64,000 bases of DNA from an uncultured Gammaproteobacteria bacterium (GCA_963764725.1 CAVXTM010000012.1:320001-384000); one strand, 5' to 3'; shown: positions 5,161 to 64,000, counted from the stretch's first letter. The notes: a model not told the origin generated them from the letters alone. Translations and numbers: made by a program.

Positions 5161-5162
5161 AT

Positions 5163-43386: not shown

Positions 43387-44517
43387 ACTCGATCCGCCGC
43401 AATGCGAAGCCTCACGCCAAGGACGCTCGTTGAATGCTGGGTTTGTGAGCTAGGCTTCCAGTGGCATTGTCTTGGGCCCCGGGGGAGGTGTGCGGCGCCC
43501 TTCGCGCCTCGGCCAGGCAGATCTTCATTTGTTCGGCCAGCGGCCCGACATAAGGATCTTGAAACAGTTCGACATGCATGCCTGGGACCATGCGATGGGT
43601 TGCTTGCGCGGCAAGCCGGGACCAGGCGTTTTGAATTTCGCGGCGCCGCACCTCGTCCATATCGTCGGCCGCCCAGATAAACCAGATCTTGCCGGCATAG
43701 GCTCTCGGCACATAGTTCTTTTTCGCGCGCCGATGCGAATCAATAGTATAGCGCGACAAAAGACCGCGCGACAAAGGCAGTCTGCACGCCAGGAAAATAG
43801 GAAGCGCGATTCTCCTACAGAGGACGTTCAACCCGTACCACACACGCGCCCACACATAGGCGAGCTGCTCGATGACATTTTTATTGACCAGGCTGCGTAA
43901 ATGCCTTTCGACACGGTTGCGAGAACGATCGCGTGCCATTGGCGTCTTCGGCGGTGGGGGATCGATCAACACCAGCGCCGCGATCTCTTCGCCTTGGGCG
44001 AGCAACTGCTGCGCCATTTCCAGCGCGATCAGCGTCGACACGCAGTCACTGCTCAAATAATAAGGCCCGTGCGGCTGTACCTTGCGCAGGTGAGTCAGAT
44101 TAAAAGCGGCCATTTCTTCAATGCGCGTCATGCGCATCTGCGTCGGGTCCCAGTGAGAGCTGATTCCGTACAGACGCTGATCAGGCCCGAGGCAGCGGCA
44201 CAACTCCCTCAACTCGGTGGCGATGCCCAGCCATACACTGAATAGCGGCGGGGTCGTGCCGTGGGGGTTGAGCGGCACGATCACATCCGAGTCATTGAGA
44301 GAATCTCCCGCCGCCAGGATTCGGCCGATCTGTTCCACGGTCGGTGCCTGAAACAGCGTCGCGACCGACAAACGCCGGCCGCAAGCCTTTTCGATTTCGG
44401 CCAACACGCGCAACACCAGAAACGAATGCCCGCCGAGATCGAAGAAGTTGTCGCGTATGCCAACCTGGTCGAGCTTTAGTACCGAGGCGAAGATCGCGGC
44501 GAGTTGCTGCTCGAGCG
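43387..44517. repeat. Direct repeat copy 2 (PCP-TE plus decayed sfp 5' end)
   Basis: Matches 29390-30521 at an offset of 13,997/13,996. Confidence 0.95.
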
Positions 44518-47500
44518 GCGTGCGCGGAGCCGCATAAACCGCGGCGTCAGAGCGTGCGCTGTCAGGCTTGGGCAGCGCCTTCCGGTCGAGCTTGCCGTTC
44601 GGGGTGAGCGGCATCTCGTCGAGCACGACAAAAGCCAATGGCAGCATGTAATCGGGCAGACGCTCTTTCAGATACTTCCGCAGGTCAGCGCCGCTCAAGG
44701 CAGTTGTGGAAGATGCCCCCACCACATAGGCGACCAAGCGCTTGTCGCCGGATGAGTCTTCTCGCGCAATGACTACAGCTTCCTTGACGTCTGCGTGTTG
44801 CGATAACATGGCCTCGATCTCCCCCAGCTCGATCCGGAAACCTCGAATCTTCACTTGATGGTCGATGCGCCCCAGGTATTCGATATCCCGCTCTGGCAGA
44901 TAGCGCGCCAGGTCCCCGGTCTTGTACAGGCGCGCCCCTGGTTCGCTGCTGAAGGGATGGGCGATGAAGCGCTCGGCGGTCAGTTCAGGGCGATTCAGAT
45001 AGCCCCTGGCAAGCCCCGCACCCCCGACATAGAGTTCGCCGGCGATGCCGATGGGGACCGGTTGCAGGTAGGGATCGAGGATGTAAAGCTCTAGATCGGG
45101 AATCGGAACACCGATCAAGCTGCCCTTGGACGCCTCGATGTCGGCCCGGGCGAGCGGCCGGTAGGTGACGTGCACGGTCGTCTCGGTGATGCCGTACATG
45201 TTGATCAAGCGCGGACGCGCATCGCTGTGGACATCGATCCAGGGCTTCAGACTGTGCAGTTCCAACGGCTCGCCGCCGAAGATCACATAGCGTAAAGCCA
45301 GCGCCTTTCTCCTCGCGCTCTGCTCGACGTCGATCAGCGGGCGGAAGGCCGAGGGTGTCTGATTCAGTACCGACACCCGCTGCTGGACGAGCAGGTCGTA
45401 GAAGGCCTCCGGGGAACGGCTAACCCAGTACGGTACCACCACCAGGCGTCCGCCGTAGAGCAAGGCGCCCCAAATCTCCCAGGTCGAGAAGTCAAACGCA
45501 TAGGAATGGAACAAGGTCCACACGTCGCTTGCCTGGAAGTCAAACCAGACTTCGGTTGCCGCCAACAGGCGGGTGACATTGCCGTGCGTGACCAGGACAC
45601 CTTTTGGCCGGCCGGTCGAGCCCGAGGTGTAGATGACATAGGCGAGGTTGTCCGGCTTAAGCGCGGATTCAGGGTCGCTATCGGGATAGTTTTCGAAATC
45701 GTGCTCGAAGGCGTCAACAAATACGAGCTTGGCGTGATGCGCAGGCAAGCGTTCTTCGAGGTTTCGCTGCGTGAGCAACACGGGGATTTTCGCGTCTTCG
45801 AGCATGAACGCCAGGCGCTCTTCAGGGTAGTCAGGGTCGAGCGGCAGGTAGGCGCCGCCGGCTTTCAAGATCGCGAGCAGCGCGACCACCATCTCGATCG
45901 AGCGCTCGACGCATAGTCCGACCAGTGCTTCCGGGCCGACGCCTAACGAAATGAGTTGATGGCTGAGTTGATTCGCGCATGCATTGAGTTCCCGATAAGA
46001 AAGCTTCCGGCCCTCGAACACGAGCGCGATGTTGTCGGGCGTTTTTTCGACTTGTTGTTCGAACAGCTCGACGATCGTCTTGTCTTTCGGATAATCGATC
46101 CGAGTTTGGTTCCAGTCGTGGATCAAGGCATGGCGTTCGGCGTCGGGCAGAAGCGCCAGCCGCGATATCTTCTTCTCGGGGTTCTTGACGATACTTTTGA
46201 GCAGCGTTTCGAAGTGCCCGACCATGCGGACGATGGTCGCCGCATCGAACAAATCGCTGCTGTATTCGACACTGATCTTCAGGCCTTCGCTGGTTTCAAT
46301 CGCATAAAGGGTCAGATCGAATCTGCTGGTTTCGCGACCCAAGTCCATGCGCTCGACCTCGAGACCGGGAAGCAGAAGCGGCACTTGCGTCGTGTTCTGC
46401 AGCGCGAACATCACTTGGAACAACGGCGAGTACGACAGGCTGCGCTCAGGCTTCAACTCTTCGACCAACTTCTCGAAAGGCAGGTCTTGGTGCGAATAGG
46501 CGGAAAGCGCCATCTCGCGCACTCGCGAGAGGTACTCACGAAAGCTCGGATCGCCGGACAAATCAGTCCGCAGCGTCAGGGTATTGACGAAAAAGCCGAT
46601 CAGGTGCTCGGTTTCAGTGCGCGTGCGCCCGGCAATCGGCGAGCCTATGACGATATCATCGGAGCGGCAATACCTTGACAGCAGCACCGAAAACGCCGCG
46701 AGCAGCGTCATGAATAGCGTTGCGCGATCGGCTTGACCGACTGTTTTAACAGCGTCGAGCAGCGCGTTATCAAGCATCCGGTTCAAGCGCGCGCCCTTGA
46801 AGCTTTGCAGCGCTGGACGCGGCCGGTCGGTCGGCAGCTCCAAAAGCGGTGGCGCACCTGACAGTTGCTTCTTCCAGTACGCGAGCTGGGGCTTGAGCAC
46901 TTCCTCGGACAGATGGCCGCGCTGCCAGACTGCGTAATCCGGGTACTGGATCGGAAGCTCGGGGAGCGATACCGCCTTGGAATTTGCAAGAGCCTGATAG
47001 AGGGCGGCGACTTCGCGATAGAAAACTCCGATCGACCAGCCGTCAGAAATAATGTGATGCAGCGTCGTCAGCGTGACATGCCGCGTATCCTCCAATTGCA
47101 GCAGCAAGACCCGAATCAGCGGCGCGCGCGACAGATCGAATGGACGCTCTGACTCTTCGGCGGCGAGCCTGCGCATCTCGGCGTCGCGCTCGGATGGTGA
47201 GAAGCCGCGCAGATCAACGAACGAAACTTTGGCGTCGGCCGACGGGTGGATGATCTGGACGGCTTCGTTTTCCTGCGTCGTGAAAGACGTGCGCAGCGAT
47301 TCGTGGCGCTTGACGATTTCGTTGATGCAGCGTTCAAAGGCCGCAACATCGAGCTCGCCTTCGAGCTTGAGCGCCGAACTGATGTTGTAGAACGCACTGT
47401 GCGGCTCCCATTGACAGAGAAACCACAGCCGTTGCTGGGCAAACGACTGCGCAAAGGCCGGCGCCTCCCCGCTGCGCGGGAGAGTGGGAATGGTGTGCTT

Positions 47501-47590
47501 GTTGGCGCGCGTTTTTTGCCTGAGCTTCGCTTCGAAAAGCGCACGCGCTTCGGGAGGAAGATTAGCGATGCGATTGACAAGGTCGTTCAT
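43412..47590 (-). CDS. NRPS termination module C-A(Thr)-PCP-TE
   Basis: C: HHIISDGWS. A: FDFSTWE, LNQTPSAF, NMYGITETTVHV (Thr code). PCP: GGHSF. TE: YLSSDCVS...LID...PGMH. Confidence 0.93.
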   Translation of the reverse strand: MNDLVNRIANLPPEARALFEAKLRQKTRANKHTIPTLPRSGEAPAFAQSFAQQRLWFLCQWEPHSAFYNISSALKLEGELDVAAFERCINEIVKRHESLRTSFTTQENEAVQIIHPSADAKVSFVDLRGFSPSERDAEMRRLAAEESERPFDLSRAPLIRVLLLQLEDTRHVTLTTLHHIISDGWSIGVFYREVAALYQALANSKAVSLPELPIQYPDYAVWQRGHLSEEVLKPQLAYWKKQLSGAPPLLELPTDRPRPALQSFKGARLNRMLDNALLDAVKTVGQADRATLFMTLLAAFSVLLSRYCRSDDIVIGSPIAGRTRTETEHLIGFFVNTLTLRTDLSGDPSFREYLSRVREMALSAYSHQDLPFEKLVEELKPERSLSYSPLFQVMFALQNTTQVPLLLPGLEVERMDLGRETSRFDLTLYAIETSEGLKISVEYSSDLFDAATIVRMVGHFETLLKSIVKNPEKKISRLALLPDAERHALIHDWNQTRIDYPKDKTIVELFEQQVEKTPDNIALVFEGRKLSYRELNACANQLSHQLISLGVGPEALVGLCVERSIEMVVALLAILKAGGAYLPLDPDYPEERLAFMLEDAKIPVLLTQRNLEERLPAHHAKLVFVDAFEHDFENYPDSDPESALKPDNLAYVIYTSGSTGRPKGVLVTHGNVTRLLAATEVWFDFQASDVWTLFHSYAFDFSTWEIWGALLYGGRLVVVPYWVSRSPEAFYDLLVQQRVSVLNQTPSAFRPLIDVEQSARRKALALRYVIFGGEPLELHSLKPWIDVHSDARPRLINMYGITETTVHVTYRPLARADIEASKGSLIGVPIPDLELYILDPYLQPVPIGIAGELYVGGAGLARGYLNRPELTAERFIAHPFSSEPGARLYKTGDLARYLPERDIEYLGRIDHQVKIRGFRIELGEIEAMLSQHADVKEAVVIAREDSSGDKRLVAYVVGASSTTALSGADLRKYLKERLPDYMLPLAFVVLDEMPLTPNGKLDRKALPKPDSARSDAAVYAAPRTPLEQQLAAIFASVLKLDQVGIRDNFFDLGGHSFLVLRVLAEIEKACGRRLSVATLFQAPTVEQIGRILAAGDSLNDSDVIVPLNPHGTTPPLFSVWLGIATELRELCRCLGPDQRLYGISSHWDPTQMRMTRIEEMAAFNLTHLRKVQPHGPYYLSSDCVSTLIALEMAQQLLAQGEEIAALVLIDPPPPKTPMARDRSRNRVERHLRSLVNKNVIEQLAYVWARVWYGLNVLCRRIALPIFLACRLPLSRGLLSRYTIDSHRRAKKNYVPRAYAGKIWFIWAADDMDEVRRREIQNAWSRLAAQATHRMVPGMHVELFQDPYVGPLAEQMKICLAEARRAPHTSPGAQDNATGSLAHKPSIQRASLA

Positions 47591-48002: not shown

Positions 48003-50007
48003 GATCGCCCCTCGAGATTTTGCGCCTGCGATCCCTCTCCTTGCGCCTCGGTAAGAAGCTGCGCCAGCTCATCGTCACTGAGCGCTTCGGCCTGCTTTCG
48101 CACGATTAACGCCGACATGCCTGCCACGGTAGGCGACTCGAACACAGCGCGCAGCGGGATGTCGGCGTCCAAGGTCTTTTTCACGCGCGAAATGACCTGT
48201 GTCGCCAGCAGCGAATCTCCGCCCAACCGGAAAAAATCATCGTGTATGCCGACCCGCGCCAAGTTCAGCACTTCAGCGAAAATGTCCGCGATAAGCTGCT
48301 CATTCGGCGTCCGTGGAGCGATATGTTCGAGGCGGTTCTGTCAGGATCGGGCGCCGGCAAAGCCTGGCGATCGACTTTGCCGTTGCGAGTCAGCGGCAAA
48401 GCAGAGAGGGGCACATAAGCGGCCGGTACCATGTAGTGCGGCAATTTCTCGCCGAGGAAGGCGCGCAAATCGTCGGTGGAGGGCAACGCCTCTCCCGTCA
48501 GATAAGCAACCAGCCTTTTCTCGTCGGGTTTATCTTCGCGCGTCGAGACCACGGCTTGCCGCACGGCCGGGTGCGATCTCAACGCCGCTTCGATCTCGCC
48601 GGGTTCGATTCGAAAGCCGCGAATCTTCACCTGGTCATCGGTTCGCCCGAGAAACTCGATGTCGCCGGTTGTAAGATAGCGAGCCCGGTCGCCTGTTTTG
48701 TACAGTCGCCCCGCCGAGCCGGCCGCATAGGGATCGGCGATGAAGCGATCGGCGGTCTGCTCCGGCTCATTAATGTAGCCGCGCGCAACCCCGGCGCCGC
48801 CGATGTAGAGTTCTCCGGGTTCCCCTATAGCTACGGGCTGCAGGTCTTCACCGAGAATATAAGCGCGCGTATTCGCGATCGGCCGACCGATTGGGACGGT
48901 TGCGCAGCGATCGGTGCGGGAGCCGTGGTCCACATCGAGAGTCAACGCGCCTATTGTCGTTTCAGTGGGTCCATAGTGATTGATGATTCGGCAGGCAGCG
49001 CCGGTCTGCTCGATGCGGCGGACGAGTTGCCAAGGCAAAGCCTCGCCGCCGAATATCAGGTACTTTCCTGGCAGGATGTCGTTTCCATCGCCTCCATCGC
49101 GCGATGCAAGCAAGGCGGCAAAGTGAGACGGTACGATTTTCAGCACATCGATCGGATGCCTCGAGAAATAGTCCGCCAACCTGTCCGCATCGGTGACCGT
49201 CTCATAGTCAAGAATATGCAGACAACCGCCGGAAATGAGGCTAGTGAAAATGCAGGTATTGCCCAGATCGGCGGTCAGCGTCGTCACCGTCGCAAAGTGA
49301 AAAGGAGCGATTTTCTGCAACTGCAGCCTGGTACGTATGAAGTGAGCATAGTTGACGATATTGGAATGGGTGATGGCCACGCCTTTCGGATTGCCGGTGG
49401 AGCCCGAAGTGAAGATGATGTAGGCGAGGTGGTTTGCGGCAACCTCGGCTTCGGGATTTTCGGTGGACTCGCTTTCACCCGACTCGCGATCGAGGTACAA
49501 CACGCGGCCGCCGAAATCCGGTAAATCACTGAACAGCTTCTCCTGAGTCAACAAGATCGAAGCCTTGACTTGCTCAAGTTGCCGCGCCAACCGGCTTTTC
49601 GGGTATTCCGGATTCAGAGGGACATACGCGCCTCCCGCCTTCAATATGCCGAGCAGCCCTACCAGCATGGCGGAAGAGCGATCGGTGCACAGACCGACCG
49701 GTATATCCGCAGTCACGCCCAAACCTTGCAGATGATGAGCGAGTTTGTTGGCTTTGGCGTTTAACTCTGCGTAACACCACCGTCCGTCGCCGCAAACGAG
49801 CGCGATCGCGCCGGGCGTCTTTTCAACCTGCGCTTCGAACAATTGATGGAGGCATCTATCGCGCGGAAAGTCCGCTTCGGTCGCATTCCATTCAACGAGC
49901 AAGCGATGGCGCTCGGCTTCAGTCAATATCGATCCTGAAAGCTGCTGCTCACAGTTGCGTGGATCCGATTTCGGTGCGGAAGAATCGCCGACGCAAACGT
50001 CATTCAT
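47999..50007 (-). pseudogene. NRPS A(Asp-type)-PCP, frameshifted near 48340
   Basis: A motifs ADLGNT, LKIVPSH and NHYGPTETTIG. The PCP (APRTPNEQ..GGDSLLA) is in another frame. Confidence 0.85.
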
Positions 50008-50293: not shown

Positions 50294-51589
50294 GGGCACT
50301 TCGATAAATTCGTTTCCAGTGGTAGCTAACCGTTAAATAACCAAGGATGATTAAAGTCGGGTAAGTGGTGTTTTGTACACGGCTACCGCTTGCCTTATAG
50401 GATGCCGTTTACCATCGCTGCTTTAGGTTGCGTGGGCAAGCCGATTTCCTGGCTTGCGTCGCTCCAGTTGCAGATAGCGCATGATGTTGTAGGTGAGGTT
50501 CATCAGCGCGATCATGGTCTTGGCCCTAGCCAGTCCTATGGTGCGGATGAGTTTGCCGCCCATGGAGTTATGCTGAAAGCCAAAGACATGCTCGACCCGG
50601 GCGCGGATGGTGGAGCGCAGGCGGTTGAGGCGCTTTTTGTGCGCACTCAGCGGTTTGCCCCGCTGGCCTTTGTAGTGGATCTGGCTCTTGAAGCCAGCCT
50701 CCCCAAGCCGCTGTTCGGTTTCCTCGGACCGATAGGCACTGTCGGCCCAGACAGAGGCTCCGGTGTTGGCTTCATCGAGCACCTCCGCTAAGAGCTGGCT
50801 ATCGTGGATGGCGGCATCGGTGACGGTAAAGTTGCGGATGAGCTTGTGCTTGTTGTCCACGTTGATGTGGTTCTTGTACCCAAAGTAGCTCTTGCCGTGT
50901 TTCTTGGTCCAACGGACGTCGGTGTCCTTCTGCCGGCGCATCGCGGGGTTGTTTTCCCAGTCCTCAGGCAGCTCGCCGCCTTTGATCGCCGCATTCTCTT
51001 CCCGAGTATTCCTCTGGCGGGGCACCGGCACGATGCTGGCATCGATGATCTGCCCGGCTTTTGCCTGATAGCCGCGCTCGCTGAGATAGGCATTGAAGCG
51101 CTCAAAGAGCCCCTCCAAGAGGCCTTGCTCGGCCAACACCTGCCTATAGGCCCACAGCGTGGTGGCATCGGGCACGTTGTCCTGCAGGTTGAGCCCGAGA
51201 AAGCGCATGAACGACATCCGTCTTTGATTTGATACTCCATCTGCTGATCGGAGATGTTATACAGACTCTGCAACACTAACGCCTTGAACATCATCACCGG
51301 GTCCAAAGGCTTGCGACCGGCGGGTGATTTACGCTCCTTCTCATGGATCTTGGCGCATAGCGGACGAAATTCCTCCCACGGGACCGACTCCTTGAGCACC
51401 ACCAACGGGTCACCCATCGCGTCCAGTGCGTCATAGCGCTCCTCTACATCAAACAACCCCGGTTGCCCCATGATCATCTCCCCTTGCTGCTCTTATGGAT
51501 GAGGGCCCATATTCTAACACGAGTTATATATCCGATCAGCTACTAAAAGCTATACTAAGGCCCGAGTCGAGGAATTAATCGAAGTGCCC
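50294..51589 (-). mobile_element. IS5-family element, transposase frameshifted near 51220
   Basis: IRs gggcacttcgataaattc and gggcacttcgattaattc. Motifs GRKPLDPVMMFK, IIDASIV, FGYKNH, ADSAY and RARVEHVFG. Confidence 0.9.
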
Positions 51590-51683
51590 TATATGGTGGG
51601 CTCCTGTTTCAACGCACTTTCTCTCCCGGTCTATCGCTGTCGGAACGGGATTCAAGTGACGATCGAGAACATGGATCCGAGTG

Positions 51684-53936: not shown

Positions 53937-54261
53937 CTCGCAAACTGCGTTCATCTCGGATACGGCGAATCGGGATTCACGCGAACGTTTATACCGCCAG
54001 ACGGCAAAATCGGCATATTGGATCGCAAGCCTGGGGAGCGGCGACTCGTGGCCTGTCCGATAGGCGCGGTGGCGCTTTACGATTTCGTTCAAGCTCCACG
54101 TCAACGCGGCGACGTCAAGCGGACCTCGTAGATGCACGACATTGGCGATGTTGTAGGAGCCACTCCCCGCTGCCTGGTGGCCGTTTTCCGCCTGAGCTTC
54201 GCTTCGAAAAGCGCACGCGCTTCCGGAGAAAGATTGGCGATATGCTCCTTGAAATCGTTCA
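53936..54261 (-). pseudogene. Internally deleted C-domain NRPS start, fused to a copy of the ThDP-enzyme 3' end
   Basis: MNDFKEHIANLSPEARALFEAKLR is paralogous to the 47590 start. Fragments YNI..V.HLRGPLD..AL..SLNEIVKRH and IQYADFAVW follow. ~53936-53990 matches ~59962-60016. Confidence 0.75.
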
Positions 54262-57200
54262 TTCTCGCAATGCTTGTTCTTGGGCATCGGTAAGAAGCTG
54301 CGCTAGCTCATCGTCACTGAGCGCTTCGGCCTGCTTTCGCAAGATTAACGCCGACAGGCCGGCCACGGTAGGCGACTCGAACAGGGCGCGCAGCGGAATG
54401 TCGAGCTCGAAGGTCTTTTTCACGCGCGAAACGACCTGCGTTGCAAGCAGCGAATGACCGCCGAGATCAAAAAAGTTGTCGTGAATGCCAACCCGGTCGC
54501 GCTGCAGCACCTCCGCCCAGATGGCGGCGAGCGTTTCTTCATTGGCCGTGCGCGCTGCAACGAAAGACTCAATCGATCGCGTGTTGTCCGACGCCGGCAG
54601 CGCTTTGCGGTCAACCTTGCCATTAGCCGTGAGTGGCAGCGAATCAAGAAACACGAAAGCCGAGGGCACTGCAGGCGCAGGTAGTTTAGAGCTCAGGAAG
54701 GCTCGAAGTTGGGAGGTGTTAACCTCGCGTTTGGCGACGACATACGCGGCCAGAAAAATCTCGCCTCGATCGTCCTTGCGCGCCATGACAAAGCACGCTT
54801 CCAGCGCTTCGTGCTGGGCGAGGAGCGCGCCGGCTTCACCCGGTTCGACGCGCACGCCGTTGATCTTGACCTGATCGTCGAGCCGGCCTTCCATCATCAG
54901 CGCTCCATCGGGACGGTAGCGCCCGCGATCTCCGGTCAAATACAGCAGATCCTGCTCGTCATCGCGAAACGGATTCCTGATGAAACGTTTTTGGTTCTCG
55001 TCAAGCGCGTTGATATACCCCAGAGTGCGAAACGGAGTTCGGATCGCGATCTCGCCGGGCTCGCCGATTCCGCATCGTTGGTTGCCTGTCCTCATGACCA
55101 GCACCTGGGTCTGCGGGAGCGGACGGCCCACTGGCTGTATGCCCAACGGCTCTTCGTCTATGACCCGGTGGAAACACTTGGCCATCGTCGTCTCCGTCGG
55201 ACCGTAAAGATTGACGATGGCGCCGGTGTGCGAGAACGCCCTGCGCCAGCGCTCGATGAGTGTGTCCTGCAGCGGCTCTCCCGAGAAGAAAACCCAGCGC
55301 AAATCGGAAAGCGAGAGATCGTGCGGCACATCCGCGAGCCACGATTGCGCGAGCGCCGGAACGGTGTGCAACACGCTGATTCGCTCACGCACGAGCCACG
55401 GCAGAATGTAACCCGGCGCCAAACCTTCGGCTTCGTCCGGCAGGTGCAAACTTGCGCCGCTGGTCAACGGCAGGAAAACATCGCGCAGTAACACGTCGAA
55501 CGACAGCGCTGTCAGTTGCGCGACCCGATCATCCGGACCGATTGCGAACGTCTCGCGCTGCCACGCGAGAAAATGACTCAAGCTCTTATGCGATCCTAAA
55601 ATTCCCTTGGGCACGCCGGTCGTTCCCGAAGTAAAGAAGATGTAAGCGGGATCGTCTGGCGCCAGCTTTGGTAGACCGCTCGCCCCGCGATCTATAGTGG
55701 CAAGCGGATGCACTGGAAGCGCACCGCCCGCATCGATCTCGATGATCGTTGCAGCATCCAGCTCGCGGATCCACGCATCTTCGCGTTGGAAATCGCCGAT
55801 ATAAAGAATCTGTTTGGCGCCCGTTTCGCGCACCAGCAGCCGCTGCCGCTCGGCCGGAAATCGGCGATCGACCGTCAGCATCACCCCGCCGCTCAACAAG
55901 ACTGCAACCATACAGGCGATCAAGCCGAAGCTTTTGGGACCGCTGATCGCGACAACATCCGAGCGTTTTAGTCCATGTGCGCGCATCTCCGATGCGATCG
56001 CCTGCGCCGCCTGCCAAAGCTCACCGTAGCTCAACGCTTTCCCGTCGTGATAAAGCGCAGTCTTGGCGGGGGTACGGTGCGCCCAATCGGCGATGGCGTC
56101 GGCCGTCAATCCATGGAGCGGCTCATGAATTTGCACCGACGGATCAGGCAGCAGCACGCGCGATGCCGGGTCCACAAGCGAATACGCAAGCAGCGGCCGC
56201 GCTGGGTCTGCGCAAATCTGCTCGAGCAAAGTGCAGTAGTGGCCGATCAGACGGCTTATCGTCTCCGCCGCGAACAAGTTGGTGTTGTACTCGATGACGA
56301 GCTTGAATGCCTCATCGCTCTCGATAAAGGTGAAACTCAAGTCGAATTTGGCGCTATCGCGCTCGAATTCAAAAGGAACGATCTCGAGCCCTGATAAATT
56401 CAATTCGCCCCAGCCTCGGTGATGCAGCACGACCAGCACCTGGAACAGCGGCGGATAGCTCAGGCTGCGTTGGGGCTTCAGTTCTTCGACGAGTTTCTCG
56501 AACGGCAGGTCCTGGTGCGCATACGCTTCGACCGCGCTCGCGCGCACGCGCGCCAGAAGTTCGAGGAAGGTCGGGTCGCCCGAGCAATCGGTGCGCAGAA
56601 CGAGGGTATTGACGAAAAGCCCGATTAGGTTTTCAGTGCTCGTGTGAGTGCGGCCGGCGATCGGCGAACCGACGACGGTGTCGTCGCTGCGCGCATAGCG
56701 TGCCAGCAAGAGCTTCACGACCGAGAGCAGTGCCATGAACAACGTCGCGCCCTTAGCCCGCGCCAGTGCGCGCAAGTCTGAGATCAAACGCTTCGGCAGC
56801 AGCCTGGTTCGGCGCGCGCCATTGAAGGTTTGAGCTGCAGGGCGCGGATAGTCGGTCGGTAATTCGAGAAGCGGCGGCGCACCGGCCAAGTAATTCTTCC
56901 AATGGGTGACCTGCTGGTCCAGCACTTCGCCTCTTAACCGCTCCCGCTCCGAGATCGCGTAATGCGCGTACTGCATCGGAAGCTCCGCGAGTGGAGATGG
57001 TGCACCTTCGGCATAGGCTTGGTATAGCGCGCCCAGCTCGCGATAAAGGATGCTCATCGACCAGCCGTCGGAGACGATATGATGAAGGTTGACGATCAGC
57101 ACGTGGTGGCCGGGAGCGAGGCGCAGCAGGCTCGCGCGCAGCAAGGGCGCGCGCGCCAGATCGAACGCGCTGCCTGCTTCCTCGGTTGCCAGACGCATGG

Positions 57201-57618
57201 CCTCGATTTCACGCGTGGCCGGCGCGAAATGCGTCAGGTCGATGATGGGTAGCGCAAAGGGGACGCTGTCATGAATGGTCTGAACGGGCTCGTCATCAAC
57301 TGCGGCGAAGCTGGCACGCAGCACGTCATGGCGCCGCAGGATTTCCACGAAGCATCGTTCCAGAGCGCCCGCATCGAGCGCCCCTTTCACGCTGAAGGCG
57401 TCGGGTATGTTGTAAAACGGACTGCCGGGCTCCAACTGGTGGAGGAACCACATGCGCTGCTGCGCGAAGGACAAGCAGTTCGGATCCCTCTCAGCTTTTT
57501 CCGAGACGATGGGCGTTTTTGCTGTTCTAATTCCTGCGCGCAGCCAGCGATCGAGCAGCGTCTGCTTGATCGACGTGAGCTCGGTGCGCTGCACCGGAAG
57601 ATTCTCTCGTTCGGACAC
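54259..57618 (-). CDS. NRPS C-A-PCP with an atypical A domain
   Basis: C: HHIVSDGWS. A: FTSGTTGVPKG, FDVLLRD, YGPTETTMAKC. PCP: GGHSLL. Confidence 0.9.
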   Translation of the reverse strand: MSERENLPVQRTELTSIKQTLLDRWLRAGIRTAKTPIVSEKAERDPNCLSFAQQRMWFLHQLEPGSPFYNIPDAFSVKGALDAGALERCFVEILRRHDVLRASFAAVDDEPVQTIHDSVPFALPIIDLTHFAPATREIEAMRLATEEAGSAFDLARAPLLRASLLRLAPGHHVLIVNLHHIVSDGWSMSILYRELGALYQAYAEGAPSPLAELPMQYAHYAISERERLRGEVLDQQVTHWKNYLAGAPPLLELPTDYPRPAAQTFNGARRTRLLPKRLISDLRALARAKGATLFMALLSVVKLLLARYARSDDTVVGSPIAGRTHTSTENLIGLFVNTLVLRTDCSGDPTFLELLARVRASAVEAYAHQDLPFEKLVEELKPQRSLSYPPLFQVLVVLHHRGWGELNLSGLEIVPFEFERDSAKFDLSFTFIESDEAFKLVIEYNTNLFAAETISRLIGHYCTLLEQICADPARPLLAYSLVDPASRVLLPDPSVQIHEPLHGLTADAIADWAHRTPAKTALYHDGKALSYGELWQAAQAIASEMRAHGLKRSDVVAISGPKSFGLIACMVAVLLSGGVMLTVDRRFPAERQRLLVRETGAKQILYIGDFQREDAWIRELDAATIIEIDAGGALPVHPLATIDRGASGLPKLAPDDPAYIFFTSGTTGVPKGILGSHKSLSHFLAWQRETFAIGPDDRVAQLTALSFDVLLRDVFLPLTSGASLHLPDEAEGLAPGYILPWLVRERISVLHTVPALAQSWLADVPHDLSLSDLRWVFFSGEPLQDTLIERWRRAFSHTGAIVNLYGPTETTMAKCFHRVIDEEPLGIQPVGRPLPQTQVLVMRTGNQRCGIGEPGEIAIRTPFRTLGYINALDENQKRFIRNPFRDDEQDLLYLTGDRGRYRPDGALMMEGRLDDQVKINGVRVEPGEAGALLAQHEALEACFVMARKDDRGEIFLAAYVVAKREVNTSQLRAFLSSKLPAPAVPSAFVFLDSLPLTANGKVDRKALPASDNTRSIESFVAARTANEETLAAIWAEVLQRDRVGIHDNFFDLGGHSLLATQVVSRVKKTFELDIPLRALFESPTVAGLSALILRKQAEALSDDELAQLLTDAQEQALRE

Positions 57619-57620
57619 TT

Positions 57621-59786
57621 TCAGGCTTCCTTTTGCATGCTGTTCATCAGCGTTGTTGATCCGCGCTTTGCGCCCGCGTCGACATCGTTTTGCAGCAGAG
57701 ACTCCGCCTCACGCTCGGATAGTCCCTGGAGTTTTTCGATCAGCGTTTCTTCGATGACTTCGGCAAGCTTGGCAATCGTCGAACATTCGAGAAGAATGCG
57801 GCCTAGCGGTATTTCGACCGGGAAAGCATCGCGCAGCCGACCCCAAATCTGCATGGCTTTCAGCGAATCGCCGCCGCGATCCAAGAAGTCGTCGTGAATT
57901 CCGATCTGCCTCACATCCAGTGCCTGTTCCCAAATTTCGGCCAGCCAAGACTCCAGTTCGGTGCGCGGCGCAACGCGGGCCGCGCTGGCCTCGCGCGCCG
58001 CAATAGTTTTCAAGATCTCGTTGAAATCACCAGCGGCGAGCCCGGTCTTTAGTTGCGTGCGCTGGATTTTGCCGCTGGTTGTCTTGGGAAATGCCGCTTT
58101 TGCGATTGGAACAAAGTAGCGTGGGTTCACACCCAGCTCGCGAGCGACGTTGGCGCGGATGTTCTTGATCACTTCAAGCTGCCGCTCGATGCCTTCGTGC
58201 CGGCACGAGAAAAAAATCGCCAGCTCTTCGGTGCCGGCGCGAGCATCCGCGATGCCGCAAGCAGCGGCATAGGTAGATACAACGCCTTCGGTCCGATTGA
58301 CGATATCTTCGATCTCGTGACTGTAATAATTGACGCCGTAGAGAACGATCATCTCCTTTTCTCTGCCGGTGATGGTCAGGCGGTGATCGAGGATGAAACC
58401 GAGATCGCCGGTGTTGAACCAGCCGTCGCCAACGAACGCCTCCTGATTGGCAGCAGCATTGTTCAAATAGCCGGGCGTTACGATATCGCCTTCGATCTGC
58501 AAACGGCCGATGACGGCTTCGGGCAGCACGCGGCCGTGCTTATCGACGATTCGAATCCGTACGCCCGGAATCGGCGGTCCGAGATCGATGAAATCGATCG
58601 CGTTCTGGTCGCCGTCGCTGGCCCTGACCAGCTTGCCGCCGAGCGACGATTTCCTGAAACGATGAACGCCGGTTACGAAATCGAAATGGTTCTGGTACGT
58701 TATGCAGGTGGCGACTTCGGCCATGCCGAAGGCCGGCTGCATGACGCGCGGCGGAACGTTAAAGCAGGCAAGCGACCGCAACAACGCGTGCACGACCAAC
58801 AGCGTGACCTGCTCGCCCGCGTTCATGAAATACTTGAGTGACGAAAGCCGCCAGGTCCTGTTTCCGGATCTTGCCAATGCGTCGCTGAGTAGTTTGTAGC
58901 CGAAATTCGGCGACCACGAATGCGTGACCCGATGCCGGTCGATCAAATCGAGCCAGGTCAGCGGATCCTCGAGGATCGAAGCCGGCGGAGCCTGGATCTG
59001 CTGAATGCCGAGGTAGACATCCTTGACGTGAAAGGTCAGCAAAGGGACGACGTGGTCCATGGCAAGCCAGTTGAGCGTAACGTCGTCCGGCCCATACCCA
59101 TTGAACTGCCGTGAGGCTTGGATATGAGAAATGACAGCGCGATGCGTTTCCTTAATGCATTTCGGCATCGCGGTGCTGCCCGAGCTCAACTGTAAAAATG
59201 CTGTATCGTCGGGGCTTACCGGCGCTGTCGATTGCACAGGCGGATGAGCGCGCAGCGCGGAGACGGACAGCAGCTTCGGCCGGTCGGCCTGCGCGACACC
59301 CGCAATCCGAGACAGCGGCGCCATCAGGCTTTCGCTGGCAATGATGGACGGACGACCTAGCGATTTCCAGGCGTTCAGCATTTTCAGGACGACGCTGTTT
59401 TCCACGTCGTACGTGGGAGCAACCGCGACGCTGACCGGCGTGATCCCTCCCAGGATGCACGCCCAGAAGGCGGGGAAAAAATCCTGCAGCGATTCTATCT
59501 GCAGAATCGCCCGGTCTTTGGCTACCAAGCCCTCACTGTACAAACCGCTGAGTAAGCGTCTTGCATCTTGCAGAAGCGCCGGATAGCTCTGGAACACTTC
59601 AGACCCATTGAATTGAACGTGCACGATGCCTTTAGCCGGCTCGTTCGCGCTCGTCCTGAGCAGGGCTTCGGAAAGCGTTTTAGGCATGCCGTCTTCCGAA
59701 ACTAATGGGCCGCCGTCGCTGAAGGCGGCGGGCTCATCCGGTACCACTCCGAACTCTTCAACCACTCGCATTGTTCTTCCGGCCAT
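57621..59786 (-). CDS. Acyl-AMP ligase (FAAL/CAL-type loading domain) fused to ACP
   Basis: AFWACILGG, QLSSGST, WLAMDHV, WSPNFGY, FGMAE, PKTTSGKIQR; ACP GGDSL. Confidence 0.85.
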   Translation of the reverse strand: MAGRTMRVVEEFGVVPDEPAAFSDGGPLVSEDGMPKTLSEALLRTSANEPAKGIVHVQFNGSEVFQSYPALLQDARRLLSGLYSEGLVAKDRAILQIESLQDFFPAFWACILGGITPVSVAVAPTYDVENSVVLKMLNAWKSLGRPSIIASESLMAPLSRIAGVAQADRPKLLSVSALRAHPPVQSTAPVSPDDTAFLQLSSGSTAMPKCIKETHRAVISHIQASRQFNGYGPDDVTLNWLAMDHVVPLLTFHVKDVYLGIQQIQAPPASILEDPLTWLDLIDRHRVTHSWSPNFGYKLLSDALARSGNRTWRLSSLKYFMNAGEQVTLLVVHALLRSLACFNVPPRVMQPAFGMAEVATCITYQNHFDFVTGVHRFRKSSLGGKLVRASDGDQNAIDFIDLGPPIPGVRIRIVDKHGRVLPEAVIGRLQIEGDIVTPGYLNNAAANQEAFVGDGWFNTGDLGFILDHRLTITGREKEMIVLYGVNYYSHEIEDIVNRTEGVVSTYAAACGIADARAGTEELAIFFSCRHEGIERQLEVIKNIRANVARELGVNPRYFVPIAKAAFPKTTSGKIQRTQLKTGLAAGDFNEILKTIAAREASAARVAPRTELESWLAEIWEQALDVRQIGIHDDFLDRGGDSLKAMQIWGRLRDAFPVEIPLGRILLECSTIAKLAEVIEETLIEKLQGLSEREAESLLQNDVDAGAKRGSTTLMNSMQKEA

Positions 59787-59976
59787 TCATGATCGCTTGC
59801 CTGCGATCTGGAAACGACGGTCCGAATGATGCTCCGGACGGATTCGGCATTTCGCCTCGCAAATGCCGAGAGAACGCCTGCTTGGCGCCGCGACGCGCTC
59901 CAACCATTTACCGCCGGTTCTCAATTCCAAGCGGTAGGTCGCATTTTCGATTCTCATATTCACTCGCAAATTGCAT

Positions 59977-61653
59977 TCATCTCGGATACGGCGAATCGGG
60001 ATTCACGCGGACGTTGATGCACGCCGCCAGGCCCGATGCCGCGGCACGCGCTAGTGCGGGTTTGATCTGTTCCGCCCGATCGACGTATTCGCCGTGCCCG
60101 CCAAAAGCCCGCATCATCTGGTCGTAATGAATGTCCGGCGCGAACATGGTGACGCGATCGGGATAATCTTCCGCATAGAACATTTTTTCGTTGGCCGTGC
60201 CCCCGTTGCCGTCGTTATTCGCCACCACGATAATCACTGGAACGCGCAGTCTGACCGCGGTCTCCATTTCCATCGCGCTGAGACCAAAAGCAAAGTCGCC
60301 GCAGATCGCGATTACCATGCGCGTCGGCAAAGCCAGTTTGGCAGCGATTCCGAATGGGACGCCGACACCCATGCAGCCGTTATTGCCCGCTGTTAATCGC
60401 GAAACCGGAAGATAGCTCGGCAAGAGATGCTGCGCCGCGGCCAGTATGATGTTCCCATCAATGACGCAGATCGCATCACGCGGAATGAAATCGCGGATTT
60501 CGGCGATCAAACGAAGCGGTGAAATCGGGCCACCCTGTTTCGCCAGCGTTTCCCATTTGGCAGCGCTTTCATCGCGTTTCTGATCGAGAGGCACACGCCA
60601 GGAAAGATGAGGCGCAGCCGCCTCGCGTGTGTTCCGCACGCGATCGATTTCCTTCACCAAGCGCCGCAACACCTGCTTGATGTCACCGACGATGGCGACT
60701 TCCGGCGTAACGTTGGCCCCGATCTCGTTTTCGTGAATCGCGATCTGAACCAGTTTTGCATCGCGCGCGATTTCGGCGCCGAAGCGGAAGGTCCAGTCGA
60801 GTCTTGCACCGATGAGCAAAACGGCATTCGCCGCGGAAAGCAGATACGATCGTGCATTGCTATAACATCGCGGATGATCGTCAGGCACGTAGCCCCGTCC
60901 CATAGGCGAAGCCGCGAACGGGGCATCCAGATAATCCACCAACTGATTAAGCTCGGCATACGGCTCGGACCAGCGAATCGCTTCACCGATAACGATTGCC
61001 GGGCGCGTCGCTTGCGCCAGCAGCTCAGCCGCGCGGCGGATCGCATCTTCATCGAACTGGCGCGCCATCGGCGTAAGACGCTGGGGTCGGCACAGCGCTA
61101 TGTCCTTCTGATTCAGAATTTCCTCCACCAAATCCAAATATACCGGTCCTGGCCGACCGCCTGTGGCGACTTCAACTGCGTTTTCAAGGGCCGGGCAGAT
61201 GGCGCCGGCGGATTTCACCGTTCCGCAAAACTTGGTGATCGATTGAAAAATCGGGATCGCATCGAGGTACTGGAAGCCCCCCATTGCATGCATGACCTCT
61301 GCGCGCCTGGCACCCAACGCGACCAGCGGCCAACCGTTGTCGCGTGCAACCAGGATCGCGGTCGTAAGATTGGTGATTGCCGGGCCGCTCGAAACGAGCG
61401 CCACTGCGCTCACCCGGCCTTCGATATAGTTCTGTGCGGCTGCCATCAGACCTGCTGCCTGTTGGTGCCGCACGCCGATCACCCGAATGCCGTTTTTGGC
61501 ACACGCGGAGAGTGTTTCGTGAATCGGGATGCCGGCGACGCCATAAACATGGTTGATGCCGAGTTCTTGCAGGCTGAACGCGATCAAGGCATGGCCATCG
61601 GCCTCCCGGCCTTGCAATGTTTGCACGCGCTTACCGGGCCCGGCGGCGCTCAT
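59977..61653 (-). CDS. ThDP-dependent enzyme, oxalyl-CoA decarboxylase / 2-hydroxyacyl-CoA lyase-like
   Basis: YGVAGIP, GVRHQQAA, GRPGPVYLD, GARLDW, GCMGVG and GDFAFGLSAMEMET...NN. Confidence 0.8.
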   Translation of the reverse strand: MSAAGPGKRVQTLQGREADGHALIAFSLQELGINHVYGVAGIPIHETLSACAKNGIRVIGVRHQQAAGLMAAAQNYIEGRVSAVALVSSGPAITNLTTAILVARDNGWPLVALGARRAEVMHAMGGFQYLDAIPIFQSITKFCGTVKSAGAICPALENAVEVATGGRPGPVYLDLVEEILNQKDIALCRPQRLTPMARQFDEDAIRRAAELLAQATRPAIVIGEAIRWSEPYAELNQLVDYLDAPFAASPMGRGYVPDDHPRCYSNARSYLLSAANAVLLIGARLDWTFRFGAEIARDAKLVQIAIHENEIGANVTPEVAIVGDIKQVLRRLVKEIDRVRNTREAAAPHLSWRVPLDQKRDESAAKWETLAKQGGPISPLRLIAEIRDFIPRDAICVIDGNIILAAAQHLLPSYLPVSRLTAGNNGCMGVGVPFGIAAKLALPTRMVIAICGDFAFGLSAMEMETAVRLRVPVIIVVANNDGNGGTANEKMFYAEDYPDRVTMFAPDIHYDQMMRAFGGHGEYVDRAEQIKPALARAAASGLAACINVRVNPDSPYPR

Positions 61654-61669
61654 CCGATTGTCTCCGCCA

Positions 61670-63553
61670 TTATCTGTCGCCCTCGCGCGTTTCATCCGCG
61701 AGCAGTTGCTCGATCTCGGCGTCGCTGAGATTTTCCAGCCCAGCCGGAATTTCCTCGGCGTTGCCGATCAATCCGCCGATCTCGCCGGCGAGCTCGGCGA
61801 CCGTCGGTTTCCGAAACACGGCGACGTTGGGCAGATCGACACCGAAGACTGCGAAAACGCGCACCATGACTTGCGTGGCTCGCAGCGAATCGCCGCCCAA
61901 AGCGAAAAAGTTGTCATCGATTCCGAAGCCGTCGATCTTCAGGACTTCGGCAAAAACCTTTGCCACGGCGTGTTCTATTTCATTTCTCGGCGCAACCGGT
62001 GCTGGCTGTAGAAATTCGCCCAGTTTGTCGGCGAGGCCAATGCGTTGCAATTTTCCGGTCGGGCCTTTCGGAATCGCAGGCACGATGACGACTTGACTGG
62101 GGATCTTGAAGTCGGTTAGGCGCTCGAACAAGAATTCGCGGATAGCATTCGGCTCCATCGAATTTTTCTCCTTCAGCACCACGGCCGCGGCGATATCCTC
62201 GCCGAGGGTCGGGTGCGGCAGCGCGAAGGCGACCGCCTGCGCCACCGCTGGATGTTCGAGCAACGCTTCATCGACTTCGCGCGGAGAAATTTTTTCGCCC
62301 CCGCGATTGATGATTTCCTTCAGCCGTCCGGTTAGGAACAGATAGCCGGCGGCGTCGAGATAGCCCTGATCACCGGTGCGAAACCACCCATTGCTGAAGC
62401 TCGCGCGATTGGCGGGCGCGTTATTTTCGTAACCCGGTGTCACGTTGGCGCCGCGAATCACGACCTCACCGCTTTGCTCTTGCGGGAGCTGCGCTCCCGC
62501 AGCGTCCATGATTGCGATTTCCGGACCTGCTGCGACACCGACCGAGCGCGGCTTACGCTGCGCTGGAGGCAAGGGATTGCTCGCCATCTGATGCGCGGCT
62601 TCGGTCATACCGTAGGATTCGATGACCGGCACCCCGAAAAGCCGTTCGAGCTCCGTCATCACCGGTGCTGGCAGCGCAGCTGACGACGAACGGATGAAGC
62701 GCAGACGATGATCCGCGATGACGTCGGCGTGTTCTTTGGCGCGCGCCAGGACCGCCTGATGGATGGTCGGCACCGCCGTATACCAGCTTGGGCTAAATTC
62801 GGACATCCACTCGAAAAATCCCCAGTCATAAAAATCGGGCGCACACACAACGCGTGCGCCGGCCGCGAGCGACGACAGCAAAGCCGCAACGAGCCCGTGA
62901 ATGTGAAACAAGGGCATCACGTTCAGGCAGCAATCGTCCGGGGAAAGCCGCAGCGTGCGGCTAATGTTGAACGCCGATGCGCAGAGATTCTTGTGCAGCA
63001 GGGGTACGAGCTTAGGCCGCGAGGTCGTGCCCGAGGTGTGCAGCAGCAAAGCGACATCCTCGCCTTGCGCTGGCCTCGAATCGACGGCTTGTCCCGCACG
63101 ACCATGCAATGAGAAAACCCCGGCCCGAGCGTCGCCCGTGGGCGCGAGTTCGATCACCTCAATCCCCCGCGAGCGCGCCACGGCGCATGCCGCAGAATCA
63201 CTGCCGGCCTCGACGATCAGTGCTTTGACCCCCAAGTCGGACAGGTAAAAATCGAATTCCTCGACGCGGTAGTGGGGATTCAGAGGCGCGCAGACCGCGC
63301 CGCCGGCAACGGCGAGAAATGCCACCGCCATCTCGGGCCCGTTCGGCAGCACGAGCGCGATGCGATCGCCGTGGCCCAGACCGCACTCCCTCAAAGCAGC
63401 TTGCGCACAACCAATATGAGCCGCCAAGGCTCGGTAGCTAAGCCACGTCCTCTCCGGCGCCGCCAGTGCTGGTCTACCGGGAAATTTTGTCGCGAGGCTG
63501 TGCAGCAACTCGGGCAGTGTTACCGCCAATCCGTGGGTTGATGTGTTATTCAC
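61670..63553 (-). CDS. Oxalate-CoA ligase-like (AAE3/PCS60-type) adenylating enzyme fused to a carrier domain
   Basis: LHTSGTTSRPKLVPL, WYTAVPTIHQ, LRFIRSSSAAL, YGMTEAAHQMASNPLPP and KEIINRGGEKISPRE; carrier GGDSL. GTG start at 63553 follows the SD gaggag. Confidence 0.8.
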   Translation of the reverse strand: MNNTSTHGLAVTLPELLHSLATKFPGRPALAAPERTWLSYRALAAHIGCAQAALRECGLGHGDRIALVLPNGPEMAVAFLAVAGGAVCAPLNPHYRVEEFDFYLSDLGVKALIVEAGSDSAACAVARSRGIEVIELAPTGDARAGVFSLHGRAGQAVDSRPAQGEDVALLLHTSGTTSRPKLVPLLHKNLCASAFNISRTLRLSPDDCCLNVMPLFHIHGLVAALLSSLAAGARVVCAPDFYDWGFFEWMSEFSPSWYTAVPTIHQAVLARAKEHADVIADHRLRFIRSSSAALPAPVMTELERLFGVPVIESYGMTEAAHQMASNPLPPAQRKPRSVGVAAGPEIAIMDAAGAQLPQEQSGEVVIRGANVTPGYENNAPANRASFSNGWFRTGDQGYLDAAGYLFLTGRLKEIINRGGEKISPREVDEALLEHPAVAQAVAFALPHPTLGEDIAAAVVLKEKNSMEPNAIREFLFERLTDFKIPSQVVIVPAIPKGPTGKLQRIGLADKLGEFLQPAPVAPRNEIEHAVAKVFAEVLKIDGFGIDDNFFALGGDSLRATQVMVRVFAVFGVDLPNVAVFRKPTVAELAGEIGGLIGNAEEIPAGLENLSDAEIEQLLADETREGDR

Positions 63554-64000
63554 ACATTTCTCTCCTCTCTTTGACACCACCGTGCCCACCTTCGTCCTAA
63601 TCCGAAGCTTCTGTACCCGTCTGCCGTTAACGTGGCGTGGTCAACGCTTTTCGGCCGCGTTCCGGTTATGACGGGAAAAGGCCGAAGCTCTGCGTAATAC
63701 TACACTACTAAACGACCAAGCAGGTGGCATGAACCGAACGTTTCAGACAACCCATTGATTCAATGGGAAAAACAGGGGTGATCAAACCCTCAAATTGAGG
63801 AAACGTATCAGTCGGTCCGATGCCTTACGCGATCTCATGCAGCCTGCTAGAGGGGATAATGAGTGGGCCTTTTGGATGTTCAAATCGAACAAACTCAATG
63901 ATCCGTCCGGCGACGGAGGCCGCGCCCGGATGGCGGTCCGCGCCGTCGATGCTGAACTCAAAGCGGTACCAGCGGTGCACTAAGAGATGGCCTCGCGCGT

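Follow-up and report, generated by a model that had tools for sequence, protein, structure and literature searches.

Genes at the head of the cluster

At the right end of a 64,000-nucleotide stretch of DNA from an uncultured Gammaproteobacteria bacterium (GCA_963764725.1, CAVXTM010000012.1:320001-384000; hereafter the window), four consecutive genes on the minus strand stand at the head of a non-ribosomal peptide synthetase (NRPS) cluster (Table 1). They encode an oxalate-type adenylating ligase with a C-terminal carrier domain (P0001), an enzyme dependent on thiamine diphosphate (ThDP) and resembling oxalyl-CoA decarboxylase (OXC) and 2-hydroxyacyl-CoA lyase (HACL) (P0002), a fatty-acyl-AMP-ligase-like domain joined to an acyl carrier protein (FAAL-ACP, P0003), and a first condensation-adenylation-peptidyl carrier (C-A-PCP) module. 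A first-pass annotation had described the ligase-carrier, a ThDP enzyme with an RHQQ motif and the FAAL-ACP at the head of the cluster; this observation is confirmed, the three being successive open reading frames (ORFs) where it had placed them. On the 5' side of the P0001 gene there is only a spacer of about 400 bp, followed by unrelated genes for a SRAP peptidase, a carboxylesterase (hydrolase) and an ABC transporter, and for this reason the ligase gene is taken as the cluster edge, again as annotated. The genes for P0001 and P0002 are best explained as a conserved starter cassette of non-ribosomal peptide assembly lines.

Pfam matches in P0001 comprised AMP-binding (residues 33-387, E 7e-75), AMP-binding_C (438-513, E 2e-15) and PP-binding (541-602), corresponding on the DNA to an adenylation (A) domain at about 62024-63493 and a carrier domain at about 61784-61969. 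The protein carries the P-loop TSGTTSRPK, the catalytic Lys513 and a putative phosphopantetheine (Ppant) site at Ser568 (codon 61886-61888). Its probable start is the GTG at 63553, which lies behind GGAGAG and is the start originally proposed. The closest solved structures were oxalate-CoA ligases (AtAAE3, 5ie0, E 2.7e-120; Lathyrus oxalyl-CoA synthetase (OCS), 6qjz, E 5.3e-118; 8aff, E 1.5e-106), and the next families were the NRPS A-PCP protein LgrA (E 1.8e-65) and malonyl-CoA synthetase (E 9e-61). The oxalate pocket of AtAAE3 is described as Val215-His216, Cys288-Ser289, Ala313-Met314, His319 and Lys500, with Ser289 and His319 given as residues specific to oxalyl-CoA synthetases (PMC8905533). 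The equivalents in P0001 are I230-H231, S302-S303, G327-M328, H333 and K513, so that both specific residues are kept (S303, codon 62681-62683; H333, codon 62591-62593) and three of the eight positions are conservatively changed (V215I, C288S, A313G). In ligases encoded beside ThDP genes of the Gln type at other loci (see below), the Ser was found in 30/30, the His in 29/30, the Met in 30/30 and the carrier Ser in 31/31.

The A domain of P0001 was 56-65% identical to stand-alone bacterial ligases of the oxalate type, and its best NCBIfam match, a FadD7-family ligase, reached 421 bits, below the cut-off of 650. From its closest solved relatives and the retained pocket residues, P0001 is classified as a predicted oxalate-type ligase with a carrier domain in place of CoA, in agreement with the AAE3-type assignment of the first-pass annotation. 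It shares the ANL fold, the TSGTTSRPK loop, the pocket Ser and His and the catalytic Lys with known oxalate-CoA ligases (AtAAE3, 5ie0-5ie3; LsOCS, 6qjz; 8aff; and Methylorubrum OXS, the bacterial oxalyl-CoA synthetase used in PMC7154664). Unlike these, it is not a stand-alone ligase for free CoA, since the fused PP-binding domain with Ser568 would serve as the thiol acceptor; its setting is biosynthetic, whereas the known enzymes are catabolic.

P0002 showed the Pfam domains TPP_enzyme_N, TPP_enzyme_M and TPP_enzyme_C (PYR, R and PP domains), with an alternative start at M15 (61653). Its closest solved relatives were 2-hydroxyacyl-CoA lyases/synthases (HACL/S) and OXC (8vzj, 2.8e-87; 6xn8, 2e-86; E. 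coli OXC 2q27, 7e-70; O. formigenes 2c31, 2e-66), and all NCBIfam scores were below the cut-offs (PRK05858, 353 bits against 587; PRK09259, 336 against 557; TIGR03254, 315 against 739; actinobacterial HACL, 274 against 600). In alignments with the solved relatives and with OXC of E. coli K-12, the canonical Glu of the R-x-E-Q motif (standard position 51) aligned to Gln78 of P0002 (codon CAA, 61462-61464), and the earlier reading of RHQQ in place of RHEQ is therefore correct. A homologue search of 5.8 billion proteins listed 120 sequences with 51-95% identity; in a MAFFT alignment of these listed homologues with the query (121 rows), two rows were truncated at the Glu column and the remaining 119 all read Gln there. 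This clade-wide conservation rules out a sequencing error or a decayed copy as the origin of the Gln. What had been suspected to mark an altered or inactive enzyme is instead the hallmark of an entire clade with an intact ThDP-binding motif.

In an alignment of 20 members with 51-78% identity to P0002 (A1), the ThDP/Mg2+ motif (G466, D467, N493, N494), the G-x-P loop (G55, P57) and F141-Q142 were invariant, which suggests that the cofactor site of the Gln clade is under selection. The phylogenetic placement of the ThDP enzymes (FastTree, 77 rows, five partial rows having been dropped) recovered the 30 Gln-type sequences as a single clade within the OXC/HACL family with local support of 1.0; its neighbours were a Glu-type Dehalococcoidia clade and E. 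coli OXC.

P0002 shares with OXC/HACL enzymes the three-domain ThDP fold, the GD...NN motif and the G-I-P loop, and the Phe141-Gln142 pair of the clade stands where E. coli OXC has Tyr-Glu and corresponds to the HACL state in the lower active site. In OXC, a Tyr and a Ser on a C-terminal lid are described as holding the water that protonates the carbanion (PMC7154664). In the alignment of the Gln clade with E. coli OXC no equivalent of this proton-relay Tyr was found (NNDG-NGG aligns to NNGGIY), and the proteins end about 15 residues before E. coli OXC, at a conserved PYPR, so that the lid carrying the Ser is missing. For ApbHACL/S, R156 and R276 are assigned to the ADP site and R260 and R400 to the acyl-CoA site (PMC11271303). 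With the numbering mapped on chain 8vzf (offset 5; F116, I475-G476 and the four Arg land on the expected letters), equivalents of R156, R276 and R260 were present in P0002, that is, both ADP-site Arg residues and one CoA-site Arg, while R400 aligned to Gln422 (codon 60430-60432), invariant in A1. The Gln clade thus differs from OXC/HACL in the Gln for Glu, the Gln at the Arg400 position, the missing lid and a substrate that is presumably carrier-bound, and is best explained as a specialised offshoot of the family with a predicted open active site.

Conservation of the pair and natural fusions

Genome loci with relatives of P0002 were fetched with the A1 profile (80 loci; P0002 alone had given one), the Glu column was read in each, and the flanks were searched with the window proteins, a ligase being accepted at ≥50% identity to P0001 and then checked for a carrier domain. 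The Glu column held Gln at 29 loci and Glu at 46, and was unreadable at five (four truncated, one frameshifted). A ligase-carrier gene lay near 28 of the 29 Gln-type loci as against none of the 46 Glu-type loci, four of which hold unrelated ligases (26-29% identity). In 22 of the 28 the gap between its end and the ThDP gene downstream was at most about 410 bp. Other arrangements were a ligase-carrier directly downstream of the ThDP gene (L011) and, between the two genes, a free-standing C domain (L013), a lyase plus an NRPS gene (L016), or a gene of the phosphoenolpyruvate (PEP) mutase family (L025-L027). In a metagenome scan with P0002, all eight loci had the ligase-carrier gene directly upstream. 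Where the available sequence was long enough, 19 loci showed a C domain starting less than about 600 bp downstream of the ThDP gene.

Taxon labels of the Gln-type loci included Gammaproteobacteria, Burkholderiales, Beijerinckiaceae, delta proteobacteria, Nitrospirales, Acidobacteriota, Gemmatimonadales, Chloroflexota, Binatia and cyanobacteria; as the loci are related, the counts do not represent independent events. The pair, for which a search in other biosynthetic gene clusters had been suggested, is strongly conserved in NRPS loci of many phyla. This arrangement is genuine and widespread, and apparently undescribed within the library searched, where full-text queries found no paper on an oxalate ligase-carrier plus ThDP cassette.

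The reverse search, with a profile of 13 ligase-carrier proteins (A2), gave at least 591 confirmed genome loci, the best 80 of which were fetched; the following counts refer to these 80. No carrier domain was present in 68 ligases and 12 were carrier-fused. A Gln-type ThDP neighbour was found at none of the 68 unfused and at one of the 12 carrier-fused loci (L126); one unfused locus had a Glu-type ThDP gene (31% identity), and at several carrier-fused loci without a ThDP gene C domains followed the ligase. Oxalate-type ligase-carrier starters therefore occur both with and without the ThDP enzyme, and every Gln-type neighbour observed accompanied a carrier-fused ligase.

Natural fusion proteins showed the same association. 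Among the best 150 matches of a profile search of 1.84 billion representatives, the Glu column held Gln in 45, Glu in 94, a gap in nine, Gly in one and Asp in one. Four proteins (P0131, P0134, P0146 and P0226) join AMP-binding, PP-binding and ThDP domains in this order and have Gln both at the Glu column and at the Arg400 position; a fifth (P0222, 872 aa) joins AMP-binding to the ThDP N and M domains with no carrier match at threshold, and has Gln at the Glu column and a gap at the Arg400 position. In contrast, P0210 (1105 aa), P0236 (1615 aa) and the fragment P0216 join a ligase to a ThDP enzyme without a carrier domain, have Glu (FRNEQ) and Arg at these positions, and show an AtAAE3-like CS/AM pocket. 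This contrast is the strongest indirect evidence that the Gln clade may take its substrate from a carrier and the Glu forms from CoA. P0210 and P0236, AAE3-type ligases fused to a Glu-type OXC/HACL enzyme, are presumably single-chain oxalate-to-formyl-CoA enzymes. In another protein, P0175 (842 aa), a short-chain dehydrogenase is fused to a Glu-type ThDP enzyme of the OXC/HACL-like family.

As docking-like motifs, many ligase-carrier proteins end in an LSDEE..LL-type helix and many ThDP enzymes carry LSPxKRxLL at the N-terminus; no such head motif was evident in the N-terminus of P0002. A complex predicted for P0001 residues 528-639 with P0002 as a monomer, although ThDP sites lie at dimer interfaces, scored 0.00 with controls that did not fold, and speaks neither for nor against docking.

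Pfam was run on 59 of 195 extracted flanking ORFs, picked by adjacency and strand. A gene of the PEP_mutase/isocitrate lyase (ICL) family was found inside the cassette at five loci (L015, L016, L025, L026 and L027). The solved relatives of its product included a protein deposited as carboxyvinyl-carboxyphosphonate phosphorylmutase, petal death protein, methylisocitrate lyases and oxaloacetate acetylhydrolase (3lye, E 2e-21), and it is plausible from these similarities that it is an oxalate-forming lyase and a possible source of oxalate. The smallest arrangements (L025, 7089-13245; L027, 7068-13157) consist of four genes, for the ligase-carrier, the PEP-mutase-family lyase, the Gln-type ThDP enzyme and a free-standing C domain. 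A domains are absent, and the acceptor there may be a soluble amine. In L027 the four genes are preceded by trpE and followed by trpG, trpD and trpC. At seven loci of Nitrospirales and other Nitrospirota (L019, L021, L022, L059, L064, L065 and L074), a gene for a protein of about 200 aa with an N-terminal MbtH domain lies just upstream of the ligase-carrier; the C-terminal part of this protein has a weak Pfam match to CBF_beta (E 1e-6 to 1e-8), and acetyl-CoA-synthetase-like and pyrophosphatase genes are found further upstream in L019, L064 and L074. A cyanobacterial locus (L024) has a gene for a ComA-type phosphosulfolactate synthase (4495-5286) between the NRPS and ligase-carrier genes.

The assembly line in the window

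Table 1. Proposed starter cassette and assembly-line features in the window
Feature	Position	Strand	Remarks
P0001: oxalate-type (AAE3/OCS-like) adenylating ligase + peptidyl carrier domain (predicted)	61670..63589	-	639 aa from GTG 63589
P0002: OXC/HACL-like ThDP enzyme, Gln clade	59977..61695	-	572 aa
P0003: fatty-acyl-AMP-ligase-like adenylating domain + ACP	57621..59786	-	721 aa
First NRPS module, C-A-PCP, presumed starter-unit acceptor	54259..57618	-	1119 aa
N-terminal remnant of next C domain	54054..54262	-	78% identity to C-A-PCP-TE protein residues 1-27
DDE_Tnp_1_4, two ORFs	52311-53731	+	
IS200-like Y1 transposase	51770-52180	-	
DDE_Tnp_1, two ORFs	50423-51477	-	
Remainder of broken module	48041..50007	-	A domain ORF 48265-50007, no own C domain
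Carrier domain of broken module	48041-48322	-	other frame than A domain; switch near 48322
Terminal NRPS module, C-A-PCP-thioesterase (TE)	43412..47590	-	1392 aa

Downstream of the starter genes, the assembly line in the window is interrupted by insertion sequences: the C domain next to the first module is reduced to about 70 codons, and three transposase genes or fragments (50423-53731) come behind it. In a quick tree, the C domain of the first module grouped as sister to that of the TE module (SH-aLRT 96), which indicates that both halves belong to one line.

P0003 had AMP-binding and PP-binding matches, and its best NCBIfam models, of fatty-acyl-AMP or long-chain ligases (PRK07768, the N-terminus of PRK05691 and the fatty acyl-AMP ligase PRK09192), all scored below cut-off. 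The first-pass annotation was right in placing an acyl-AMP ligase-ACP after the ThDP gene, but this gene is not part of the conserved cassette, since a FAAL-ACP between the ThDP gene and the first C domain was found only in the window and in a near-identical metagenome locus (L089, five segments 91-100% identical to the window). Among 15 genomes of the same order, only one other had a relative (57% identity), so close kin offer no synteny test of the FAAL-ACP. In a genome of the same genus (G009; L017/L088) the SRAP gene and the ligase are syntenic with the window, and identity to the window was 92-93% in these two, 73% in the carrier domain and 56-57% in the ThDP enzyme, which suggests that the downstream part of the cassette has been exchanged by recombination near the ligase/carrier junction.

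Further along the minus strand, 39360-43163 encodes a starter-like protein with an A domain, an FkbM-type methyltransferase, a carrier domain and a sulfotransferase; it seems to resemble the way in which some cyanobacterial depsipeptides begin, with glyceric acid loaded, O-methylated and sulfated. The adjoining 3059-aa hybrid (30184-39363, minus strand), with ketosynthase, acyltransferase, class-III aminotransferase, methyltransferase, C, A and two carrier domains, presumably follows the beta-amino-fatty-acid logic of iturin-type lipopeptides, and the FAAL-ACP could equally be the primer of this hybrid. At the end of the cluster (27288-30242, minus strand) are genes for a Type II thioesterase, an Sfp-type phosphopantetheinyl transferase and a DUF4910/DUF2172 aminopeptidase-like protein with a winged-helix end.

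Proposed chemistry and alternative explanations

In the scheme proposed for the cassette, oxalate would be adenylated by the ligase domain of P0001 and transferred as a thioester to Ser568 of its own carrier domain, and the Gln-type enzyme would bind the oxalyl-loaded carrier. ThDP would add to the oxalyl thioester carbonyl and CO2 would leave, with a ThDP-bound hydroxy(thio)methyl carbanion, a C1 acyl-anion equivalent, remaining. This carbanion could be protonated to give formyl-S-carrier, be captured by a carbonyl electrophile to give 2-hydroxyacyl-S-carrier, or attack a thioester to give 2-oxoacyl-S-carrier, and the first C domain would pass the unit on. In this account, the best supported one, loading and carrier binding draw on sequence, linkage and fusions, and ThDP attack, carbanion fate and C-domain uptake draw on analogy with OXC and 2-hydroxyacyl-CoA synthase (HACS). 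Indirect evidence favours action of the Gln-type enzyme on the carrier rather than on CoA. What the analysis establishes is the domain make-up, the oxalate-type pocket, the Gln throughout the clade, the strict association of Gln-type enzymes with carrier-fused ligases and the natural fusions; from these we infer that oxalate is the substrate, that the enzyme works on the carrier, that CO2 is lost and what becomes of the carbanion. The interpretation in the first-pass annotation, of oxalate loaded onto a carrier and decarboxylated to a formyl or carboligated to a 2-hydroxyacyl starter, is partly supported. We consider decarboxylation of an oxalyl group on the carrier somewhat better than an even bet, divided about equally between formyl release and carboligation.

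As regards these two outcomes, OXC deprived of the proton-relay Tyr is reported to form formyl-CoA 20-50-fold more slowly, with the balance shifted about 400-fold towards carboligation (PMC7154664). The HACL-like Phe-Gln pair in the Gln clade, together with the lack of the OXC Tyr and lid, would by analogy lean towards carboligation. On the other side, HACLs also lack the proton-relay Tyr and the lid and yet release formyl-CoA. A stronger form of the carboligation proposal, which we regard as possible but rather doubtful, is that Gln-type enzymes are natural carrier-protein-dependent C1 carboligases, in which loss of CO2 from oxalyl-S-carrier would drive formation of a formyl-anion equivalent. 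With neither proton relay nor lid, the carbanion would not be released as formyl and would attack a carbonyl partner to give a 2-hydroxyacyl starter one carbon longer than that partner. With a partner such as the fatty acyl-S-ACP encoded next door, a 2-oxoacyl starter would result.

Parallels to several parts of the scheme are known. NRPS formylation (F) domains provide formyl starters that depend on formyl-tetrahydrofolate. In lactacystin biosynthesis (LctF, LctA AT1-ACP1) a carrier-bound C1 acyl group likewise opens the assembly line, but is described as derived from 10-formyl-tetrahydrofolate (PMC11730586), where here it would come from oxalate by decarboxylation. The engineered cascade of OXS, OXC(Y497A) and a thioesterase (Burgener et al. 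2020, PMC7154664) converts an ATP-activated oxalate thioester by ThDP-dependent decarboxylation into a C1 nucleophile, and removal of the proton-relay Tyr in it favours 2-hydroxyacyl thioesters by carboligation. That cascade is man-made and CoA-based, whereas the natural cassette would use a carrier domain and hand its product to an NRPS.

Glyoxylate carboligase decarboxylates a C2 acid with the carboxylate on the reactive carbonyl, and the resulting C1 carbanion forms a C-C bond. It is the only ThDP family reported, in the literature consulted, to do without the canonical Glu (PMC3534367). The E. coli enzyme (2pan) shares this lack with the Gln clade, with Val there and Gln here; it differs in using free glyoxylate as substrate, not a thioester, and is distant from P0002 (E 1e-39). 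This parallel is a lead only and was used as no evidence.

Several observations weigh against decarboxylation of a carrier-bound oxalyl group as the start of this line. Glu-to-Gln changes usually cripple ThDP enzymes. No oxalate-forming lyase is encoded in the window cluster, and in the genome the best match to the PEP-mutase family had 30% identity and lay on another contig, beside one weak match. At one Gln-type locus (L068, 9185-11638) the ThDP gene is preceded by an MbtH-carrier fusion and accompanied by ordinary NRPS domains, and the sequence around it holds no oxalate ligase; this locus is probably a deletion derivative of the Nitrospirales arrangement. The position of the FAAL-ACP between the ThDP gene and the first C domain means that two possible donors compete for one C domain, and in a quick tree of 56 condensation domains those directly after the ThDP gene formed no special clade (12 changes among 19 'first' rows), so that they bear no sign of adaptation to any one small donor. 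The insertion sequences imply that the product may not be made by this strain. Human HACL, which has the same Phe-Gln pair, is reported barely to decarboxylate oxalyl-CoA (kcat <1 per min; PMC7154664).

Among the alternatives, transfer of the oxalyl-S-carrier unchanged to give an N-oxalyl peptide, with the Gln-type enzyme engaged in separate chemistry (for example on a 2-oxo acid or aldehyde, perhaps on another carrier), is unlikely, though the likeliest of them. Of the 12 carrier-fused ligases among the best 80 loci, 11 have no ThDP gene and several stand directly before C domains, so that oxalyl can probably be passed on as such, and additional carriers are at hand in the A-carrier proteins of two cassettes (L010, L014) and in the FAAL-ACP of the window. 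What this explanation leaves unaccounted for is the adjacency of the Gln-type enzyme to the oxalate ligase-carrier, in nearly all genome loci and every metagenome locus, the four fusion proteins with a detected carrier that join the two, and the fact that the closest characterised relatives of the Gln-type enzyme all have as substrate the thioester expected from the ligase. That the ligase loads a different small acid (glyoxylate, oxamate, glycolate or malonate) and the ThDP enzyme acts on that thioester has a low probability: the three altered pocket positions and the NCBIfam scores under all curated cut-offs leave room for it, but both residues described as peculiar to oxalyl-CoA synthetases are kept throughout, the margin over malonyl-CoA synthetases is wide (E 1e-120 vs 1e-60), and five cassettes contain the PEP-mutase/ICL-type lyase.

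The loss of the canonical Glu and the docking-like terminal motifs of many members would also fit a ThDP-like protein that has given up catalysis and instead docks with the carrier domain or scaffolds it. We hold this to be improbable, given that GD...NN, the G-I-P loop and Phe-Gln are invariant or nearly so across the 20 members of A1, which fits selection on the cofactor site, and that glyoxylate carboligase, a ThDP family with Val in place of the Glu, is reported to be active (PMC3534367). An ordinary CoA-dependent pair for oxalate breakdown, oxalyl-CoA synthetase plus OXC, lying beside an NRPS cluster by chance is scarcely credible. Both families do perform this reaction in primary metabolism, and the best NCBIfam names (FadD7-family ligase, PRK05858/OXC) point that way; yet the ligase has a carrier domain with a Ppant Ser, the ThDP enzyme is without one CoA-binding Arg, the lid and the Tyr-Glu and Tyr of OXC, the pair precedes C domains in many phyla, and a formyl-CoA transferase was not seen among the cluster ORFs scanned.

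If a carrier-bound oxalyl group is indeed the substrate of the Gln-type enzyme, the cassette would represent a widespread and unstudied start of non-ribosomal peptides, in which oxalate supplies a C1 or C2 head group, spanning Pseudomonadota, Nitrospirota, Acidobacteriota, Gemmatimonadota, Chloroflexota, Cyanobacteriota and Binatia, mostly uncultured. The strict link between the Gln, the lost CoA-binding Arg and the carrier-fused ligase, set against the carrier-less fusions with Glu and Arg, would make the question testable with few proteins. A natural ThDP clade with Gln at a position regarded as nearly indispensable would be a test bed for cofactor activation, and a carrier-linked relative of the OXC/HACS enzymes engineered for one-carbon extension would be of use in biocatalysis. 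Should the Gln-type enzymes prove to be C1 carboligases, they would be nature's counterpart of the engineered oxalate/OXC C1-extension cascade, a second natural ThDP family without the canonical Glu, and a folate-independent entry of C1 units into assembly lines.

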